Below are positions 58,649-58,874 of a stretch of 64,000 nucleotides of DNA, piece after piece. The notes below the pieces were generated by a model. It did no database searches, was not told the DNA's origin, and worked only from the letters and a program-made list of their open reading frames with translations. The stretch is from a virus, in the IMG/VR virus record IMGVR_UViG_3300047476_000577, positions 32,001 to 96,000 of that record. One strand, written 5' to 3'. Position numbers and translations under genes: made by a program. The number at the start of each line of letters is the position of its first letter. Positions within the stretch are counted from its first letter, which is position 1.

Positions 58649-58874
58649 TTACAAGCCTAGCGTCCTCAGGTTTATCGCTAGTGTTTAGACGTTCAGAGCC
58701 GGACTTCCTAACGTCGAGTTCTTCCAGGACTTGTTACTTGGGTTACTTGGCCAGGCGCTCCTTTACAGCTACCGCCCGGTATGGACGGTGGGGAGTTGAA
58801 CCCCCTCCTGCTTTACCTAATCTTTGGCTGGCCAGCTACTCGAGTCGGTGCTTTTTACTTGCTAACGCTTGCAA
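58649..58874 (-). ncRNA. ~225-nt RNA with a permuted tRNA-like core
   Basis: Terminal stem TTGCAAGC/GCTTGTAA; GGGGGTTCAACTCCCC-ACCGTCC-ATACC-GGGCGGT-AGCTGTAAAGGAGC. Confidence 0.6.

Follow-up and report, generated by a model that had tools for sequence, protein, structure and literature searches.

The window analyzed here, a stretch of 64,000 nucleotides (64 kb) from an IMG/VR virus record of 104 kb that is estimated to be 29% complete, carries on its minus strand an array of 13 tRNA genes, among which lies a sequence whose tRNA-like parts occur in permuted order. The question raised by this locus is what kind of RNA this sequence represents. A sequence-only reading had described it as a permuted tRNA-like RNA of a different class from a neighboring candidate, located within an element of ~225 nt and possibly related to two-piece tmRNA. 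From the analysis presented below, it is considered most probable (at roughly 0.6) that the element is the single, divergent copy of a conserved jumbo-phage RNA of 200-235 nt which pairs with itself, displays a tRNA elbow and is released from the tRNA array.

The string on which the earlier description was based, CAGG-A-GGGGGTTCAACTCCCC-ACCGTCC-ATACC-GGGCGGT-AGCT-GTAAAGG-AGC-G-CCTG, is indeed present on the minus strand at 58810-58752. The whole RNA element spans 58646-58878 of the minus strand (233 nt), its limits being set by conserved family sequence; this delimitation is supported by a full-length match to the family model R2, by termini that match those of the family (5' GGUUUUGCAAG, 3' CUUGUAAUUU), and by the joint of a back-joined RNA contig, which at 58874/58646 coincides with the element ends. 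Against model R2, a score of 81.9 bits (E 4.5e-25), reached over model positions 1-217, marks the window copy as a divergent family member; it is itself one of the 79 seed sequences of this model, and its membership is supported independently of the seed by pairwise alignment to loci L030 and L035 and by its likeness to L199 and L202. The features of the R2 family, i.e., helices P1, P2 and P6 and the CCCAAG-URAC motif, are all present in the window copy, whose 5' half resembles locus L202 and whose 3' half resembles locus L199, domain by domain. Near-identical DNA of the window phage is contained in freshwater metagenomes from a dozen studies.

The homology was first seen in L030 and L035, which had been retrieved via the neighboring DUF2828 protein, and homologues were exposed by the combination of the T-loop and a downstream CCCAAGU word. 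In IMG/VR, one pattern scan yielded 70 loci and a second one more than 120, so that the family is represented in more than 120 IMG/VR contigs and comprises 109 unique members of 200-235 nt, 89 of which start 1-3 nt after the ...CCA of a tRNA. Four 100%-complete genomes of 352-367 kb, all of them jumbo phages, contain a single copy each according to model R2 (E 1e-66 to 1e-75). A pattern scan of 185,579 reference genomes gave 25 matches, of which six are real members, all on freshwater MAG contigs, and the other 19 were discarded as chance matches (~35 were expected by arithmetic). As to hosts, the MAG bins alone hint at lake Betaproteobacteria, Bacteroidota or Actinobacteria. Blastn searches of GenBank phages with the region and with a typical member returned no family match, and no family in Rfam 15 matches the window copy or a typical member at E<=10. 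An exact 23-mer of the core was not found in IMG/VR, blastn of the element against 80 DUF2828 loci returned nothing, and no relatives were found for the flanking gene, which encodes an oxygenase-like protein of 225 aa. The RNA family, which is uncatalogued as judged from Rfam 15 and GenBank phages, is strongly conserved and carried by uncultured freshwater jumbo phages. More distant relatives (23-57 bits with R2) were detected at L088:2683-2866, L083:7299-7470, L064:7762-7933, L087:16407-16591 and L067:4766-4933; these retain the near-invariant terminal stem and the 3' domain and differ in their centers of 70-90 nt, which indicates that the family is in fact a wider superfamily with a swappable middle.

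A common fold is supported by covariation across homologues, a check that had been suggested along with the original description. In alignment A6, which contains 79 non-redundant members, 94.1% of cells hold standard pairs, compared with 33-47% when the partners are slid, and both sides change in 30 of 45 pairs, values that were reached by none of 500 shuffles. The G-U pairs are compatible with the minus strand only. The family is transcribed from within the tRNA array, in the same direction as the tRNAs. Covariation supports P1 (the terminal helix, 9 bp), P2 (GUYA/URAC), a 3-bp GUC/GAC helix, the P3 hairpin, the T-stem, P5 and P6; an extended GUCAC/GUGAC helix was also considered and was dropped, with support for 4 bp only. 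The minimum free energy of the element folded as a single sequence is no better than that of shuffles (z = 0.11), so that the fold is argued from covariation alone.

The architecture that emerges consists of a core, formed by P1, the 4-bp P2 and a 3' domain containing P5 and P6, and of a variable center, which holds the palindromic P3 hairpin and a swappable module. The closing helix that had been proposed for the ~225-nt element is correct in that its outer arms, TTGCAAGC (58867-58874) and GCTTGTAA (58649-58656), do pair, but only these outer 8 bp are terminal. They constitute P1, whose 5' strand UUGCAAGC pairs with the 3' strand GCUUGUAA at the same positions (helix 1, 99.9% paired in the family and supported by covariation); the consensus of this helix, UUUUGYAAGY / RCUURCAAA, is nearly invariant in sequence, and the window copy differs by two compensatory changes, with C-G replacing U-A, and by one G-U pair. 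The adjacent GUUA (58863-58866) instead pairs with UAAC (58733-58736) to form P2, of which the third pair covaries (C-G 54, U-A 22, U-G 3), and GCUAG belongs to the local P6 hairpin. The 3' strand of P2 follows the conserved CCCAAG motif, and together these, at 58733-58742, represent the second unit of a tandem CCAAGUAAC repeat. This 9-nt repeat is present twice (58733-58750, minus strand) and thereby offers two alternative UAAC partners for P2. As previously noted from the sequence, the window copy carries no CAGCA handle, having UAGCA at this site, where the family consensus reads GUCAGCAAG with its C base-paired in P2.

In the 3' domain, P5 (58688-58715, minus strand) is a hairpin with the stem GACGUU/AACGUC and a loop that contains CCGG at 58699-58702; this stem is deduced from a single pairwise comparison, that with L199 (GGUGUG/CACAUC). 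P6 (58657-58681, minus strand) is formed by CUAGCG and CGCUAG, which enclose AUAAACCUGAGGA; it corresponds to helix 12, in which four of five pairs change on both sides, and its counterparts are AUAGGA/UCCUAU in L199 and GUUGC/GCAAC in type I members. A candidate pseudoknot would join GUCCU (58726-58730) to AGGAC (58662-58666). The P3 hairpin region of the variable center covers 58815-58846 (minus strand).

The module of the window copy is bounded by a short stem, in which CAGG (58807-58810) pairs with CCUG (58752-58755), a pairing read from the sequence; analogous closing stems, CAAUG/CAUUG and CAACG/CGUUG, occur in members with other modules, while typical members have no such stem, and for these members a pairing partner of CUGG located upstream of the T-arm was considered and abandoned. 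Within this stem lie, all on the minus strand, a T-arm at 58790-58804 (GGGG / UUCAACU / CCCC, with a loop that fits TTCRANN and a stem paired in 97.5-98.8% of members), an acceptor at 58771-58789 that is sealed by a loop (ACCGUCC / AUACC / GGGCGGU, 7 bp including one G-U, supported by covariation), and a D-arm at 58757-58769 (GCU / GUAAAGG / AGC). A strict descriptor that combines a T-arm, an adjacent sealed acceptor of 6-7 bp, a D-arm with GG and the closing stem has one match in the 64-kb window; without the closing stem it has two, namely the element and a YrlA-like RNA at 57566-57631. The latter, relaxed form of the descriptor gave 2.0 hits per 1.2 Mb of shuffled sequence (both strands), and the match in the element exceeds what chance would give. 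Adjacent tRNA genes with mutually complementary acceptor strands, which are probably tandem paralogues, also satisfy the 'permuted tRNA' descriptor (in L064, L069-L071, L080 and others) and are therefore a source of false positives in scans for permuted tRNAs.

MAFFT misaligns the tRNA-like module, and a covariance model with the window copy as its only input was used instead; in relatives it picks up this module with E values as low as 5e-6. The T-arm, sealed acceptor and D-arm are present in 71 of 108 unique members, a share that is biased by the retrieval of two sequence sets with family motifs. The tRNA-like core first noticed in the window is therefore real and conserved in related phages. 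A stricter descriptor is passed by 50 of 87 members as against 1% of shuffled segments. Among the 71 modules there are 42 distinct acceptor stems and 14 distinct D-stems, the D-loops nearly always contain GG, and all seven acceptor pairs and all three D-stem pairs change on both sides in the alignment fitted to the window-copy model. In the family, 0-2 nt separate the acceptor from the D-arm. A GNRA tetraloop seals the acceptor in 50 of the 71 modules, and the 5-nt AUACC does so in the window copy, so that there are no free ends to charge. In the window copy and in about two thirds of its relatives, the module is thus a tRNA mimic that comprises an elbow and an acceptor. It lacks both an anticodon arm and a free end, charging is impossible, and it does not qualify as a tmRNA. 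In about one third of members the mimic has been replaced or trimmed, leaving only the T-arm and D-arm or an unrelated GGGGCGCAAAACCC hairpin, which shows that the family core can do without the elbow. This makes the module an accessory 'cargo' of the variable region, and the tRNA elbow is its best-kept part. It resembles none of the 13 tRNAs of the window, and an origin from a neighboring tRNA gene was dropped for this reason.

The loops of P3 and P5 have a further property in common. The apex of P3 is palindromic in nearly all members, being CUUCGAAG in 76, of the GUUCGAAC type in 19, of the UGGCCA type in two (the window copy and L202) and CUAAUUAG in two, with UAAUUA also among the variants; a palindrome of at least 8 nt is present in 97% of members and in 16% of shuffles. 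In the P5 loop at least 15 different palindromes of 6-10 nt were found, for example GCCGGC, CUCGAG, GUCCGGAC, GCGCGC and GCAGCUGC, and when the positions of this loop are treated as pairs (helix 11) they are 97.8% complementary and change on both sides. The innermost of these partners are adjacent nucleotides, which can pair only between molecules and not within one chain. Palindromes that keep changing in two loops imply, on such comparative grounds, that copies of the RNA would pair with one another, an argument that has been applied to OLE and GOLLD by Kretsch et al. 2025 (PMC12286853). In the window copy the apex of P3 (58827-58836) reads GCUGGCCAGC, which is palindromic over all of its 10 nt, and the palindrome in the P5 loop is just CCGG as compared with the 6-10 nt of its relatives. 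The idea that the P3 apex UUCGAAGG is connected with CCGAAGG, to which Ro binds, was dropped, this feature being absent from the window copy and from Ro-less genomes.

To what extent the element exists as RNA was assessed from the contigs of four metatranscriptome runs, which were compared over 57200-60200, and interpretation is confined to the parts of the window that have RNA-contig cover. Short contigs on the element occur in three runs from two studies, at k-mer depths of 45-430 as against 0-40 for a contig over the neighboring ORF. Run X17 contributes a contig of 187 nt at 58678-58864 (depth 427), run X16 contigs at 58664-58754 and 58737-58841, and run X15 a contig at 58750-59081. Such depths are no measure of expression, and RNA libraries can contain DNA; these deep, short contigs are accordingly a weak sign of a stable RNA. 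Deep contigs are also present over the ORF-poor segments 59018-59219 and 59927-60200, pointing to additional stable non-coding RNAs on its upstream side. At window position 58754, a contig of run X16 passes from the 3' domain of the window copy into a different tRNA-like module (GAUC-GGAA-GAUCCGU, GCAG-AUUGG-UUGC), which points to an exchange of modules between close relatives or to an assembly chimera.

In the reading favored here, the RNA would be released from the array transcript by tRNA-processing enzymes. Copies would then pair via their palindromic loops, for which the window copy offers a strong CUGGCCAG in the apex of P3 and, in P5, what is left of a palindrome, CCGG; this pairing may lead to dimers or to larger RNA assemblies, as in OLE, GOLLD and ROOL. 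Such an assembly would display the tRNA elbow to a factor that recognizes the shape of tRNA, for which RNase P, modification enzymes or a host tRNA-directed defense enzyme are candidates.

The tRNA cluster of phage T4 is known to encode small stable non-tRNA RNAs, species 1 and 2 (rnaC/rnaD), whose function is unknown and which are released by tRNA-processing enzymes; the present family would resemble them in being small, stable and located in the tRNA cluster of a phage. Those of T4 are shorter and are not known to have palindromic loops or a sealed tRNA mimic. The so-called 'ornate' RNAs ROOL, GOLLD and OLE (PMC12286853) are similarly encoded by phages beside tRNA islands with no known protein partner, their loops also switch between palindromes in a manner that implies inter-chain pairing, and GOLLD possesses a variable region that can hold tRNAs. 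They are, however, 580-800 nt long as compared with 200-235 nt for the family and 233 nt for the window element, share no sequence or Rfam similarity with it, and have a demonstrated assembly, which for the present family is predicted; furthermore, its tRNA part is a sealed mimic and not, as in GOLLD, a whole tRNA. The family hence joins two themes known only separately, namely the sealed tRNA mimic of the Y RNAs and the evolving self-complementary loops of the cage-forming ROOL and GOLLD. Lake jumbo phages thus carry a compact RNA, in one copy per genome and absent from the catalogues searched, whose size of ~220 nt puts it within reach of direct structural and biochemical study and which could reveal what the RNAs of phage tRNA islands do, a question shared with ROOL and GOLLD.

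Among the alternatives, the proposal that the mature RNA is a covalently closed circle, in which P1 is sealed by ligation of the ends and the molecule resists exonucleases, is unlikely. It derives from a contig of run X16 (278 nt, depth 45, from a relative that is ~86% identical) that joins 58646 to 58874, i.e., exactly the family-defined 3' and 5' ends. No such junction was encountered in DNA, either in ~250 loci or in IMG/VR, although the latter scan used the consensus junction sequence only; tandem copies of the element were not found in the ~250 loci, and the near-invariant sequence of P1 is suggestive of recognition by an enzyme. The joint is seen, however, in a single assembled contig of one run, and the same joint could arise by template switching of reverse transcriptase at the ends of an abundant RNA or as a wrap-around artefact of assembly. 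Searches for RtcB, Rnl2-type and T4 Rnl1-type ligases returned none in the phage genomes searched, and neither RtcB nor a ligase of the Rnl type was detected in the four complete ones (the Rnl1 search having no positive control), so that a circle would need a ligase of the host. A circular form is possible, on the thin support of one metatranscriptome contig, and the joint at 58646/58874 either way marks the mature termini, be it by circularization or by template switching; if confirmed, a head-to-tail joint would represent a rare bacterial or phage circular RNA. It is more doubtful still that such a circle assembles via its two self-complementary loops into an RNA-only multimer that displays sealed tRNA elbows. 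If true, the transcript of a phage tRNA array would give rise to a circular analogue, in miniature, of the nanocages formed by ROOL and GOLLD.

A second, rather improbable alternative regards the element as a Y RNA of the YrlA type, which would be the partner RNA of a Ro60-like protein, the DUF2828 protein whose gene lies 1.7 kb downstream, and whose module would recruit tRNA enzymes or nucleases to this protein. The topology of the module, a T-arm, a sealed acceptor and a D-arm, is exactly that of YrlA, as judged from a manual comparison with the consensus in Rfam and from Chen et al. 2014 (PMC4201824); the same permuted order with no anticodon is found in bacterial and phage Y RNAs (RF02553; PMC4201824), and in both cases the two termini of the RNA are located in a separate terminal helix. 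The 'YrlA-like closed acceptor' of the sequence-only reading is thus right for the module, but it does not extend to the whole RNA. The Rfam YrlA model RF02553 has no match on the element at E<=10, and the terminal helix lacks both the A-rich 3' strand of YrlA and the GNCGAA motif, YrlA being bound by Ro through GNCGAAN0-1G in this helix (PMC4201824). The remainder of the element (P2, P3, P5, P6 and the palindromic loops) is unrelated to YrlA, and its acceptor/D-arm spacer of 0-2 nt differs from the conserved UA of YrlA.

The genomic context of a Y RNA is likewise only partly in place. The window does encode a DUF2828+DUF7788 protein (55517-56935), and divergent relatives of the family occur in eight of 80 DUF2828 loci. 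A better YrlA-like RNA is available at 57538-57662 on the minus strand (40.3 bits against a gathering score of 69 for RF02553, E 2.5e-6), where it lies between tRNA-Pro and tRNA-Met and upstream of the DUF2828+DUF7788 gene; the element lacks the CAGCA handle that is common to the other candidate partner RNAs of the window, and it is, as had been proposed, distinct from this CAGCA-handle RNA. The family has no obligatory Ro60, TROVE or DUF2828 neighbor: DUF2828 was found in only 15 of 108 family loci, as judged from the DNA examined around each, and three of four complete genomes that carry the RNA encode neither DUF2828 nor TROVE, RtcB being likewise absent from these three. A PDB sequence search with the DUF2828 protein returned nothing, and nothing relevant to DUF2828 was found in the literature.

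It is more improbable again that the element serves mainly in cis, in the processing or spacing of the tRNA array, or is a remnant of tRNA genes, and that it does not act as a free RNA of its own. It is always located in tRNA arrays, usually butted against a CCA end, and its module looks like the junction of two tRNA halves. Yet there is one copy per genome as compared with dozens of tRNAs in the arrays, ~200 nt of non-tRNA sequence are strongly conserved, with covarying helices and palindromes, and the module is unlike every one of the 13 tRNAs of the window.

The weakest proposal, that of a permuted RNA resembling two-piece tmRNA, the acceptor loop of which is opened by RNase P and which after CCA addition is charged by AlaRS (G3:U70, A73) and rescues stalled ribosomes, is highly improbable, and the identification of the element as a tmRNA is rejected. 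Like two-piece tmRNAs (Rfam RF01849-RF01851), the element places the T-arm and the 3' acceptor strand before the 5' acceptor strand, and the window copy adds G3:U70 and A73. The alanine identity elements that had been pointed out are therefore present, in a 7-bp acceptor with A at the discriminator position, but G3:U70 occurs in one of 46 seven-bp stems, that of the window copy, and the family does not conserve these elements. Also counted in favor of a tmRNA was the T-loop UUCAACU of the window copy, which is identical to that of E. coli tmRNA. Against this, ARAGORN, which is able to detect permuted tmRNAs, reports none, and the tmRNA clan of Rfam matches no more than 15 nt of the T-arm, with 12.5 bits where the gathering score is 47. 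A loop of 4-5 nt seals the acceptor, with a GNRA tetraloop in 50 of 71 modules, making the RNA one piece; RNA contigs cross this loop unbroken. No tag frame is conserved in the family, in agreement with the initial impression that none was convincing, and the stretch that follows the module is a conserved, non-coding structural motif with stop codons, indels and covarying stems. In M. smegmatis, RNase P cleaves YrlA, which also has a sealed acceptor of 7 bp, and CCA is then added in vivo (PMC4201824); cleavage of this kind is therefore conceivable for the 7-bp stem of the window copy, but contigs cross its loop intact and the feature is not conserved. For the window, the tmRNA idea is consequently removed, and the element is separated from the adjoining Ro60-like/CAGCA-handle system.

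Other genes of the window may be mentioned in their own right. Within the tRNA array, at 60702-61076 (minus strand), lies the gene for a 124-aa protein of the ArfB/peptidyl-tRNA-hydrolase type that contains an RF-1 domain (PF00472, 48.3 bits) and is possibly a phage ribosome-rescue factor. A protein of 76 aa with an Rpb6/omega domain of RNA polymerase (47.2 bits) is encoded at 54808-55038 (minus strand) and has homologues in 23 of 108 family loci. Finally, the segment 51487-53234 (minus strand) encodes a non-specific DNA/RNA endonuclease (PF01223, 167 bits) and a Gram-negative porin (PF13609, 111 bits), the latter of which hints at a Gram-negative host.
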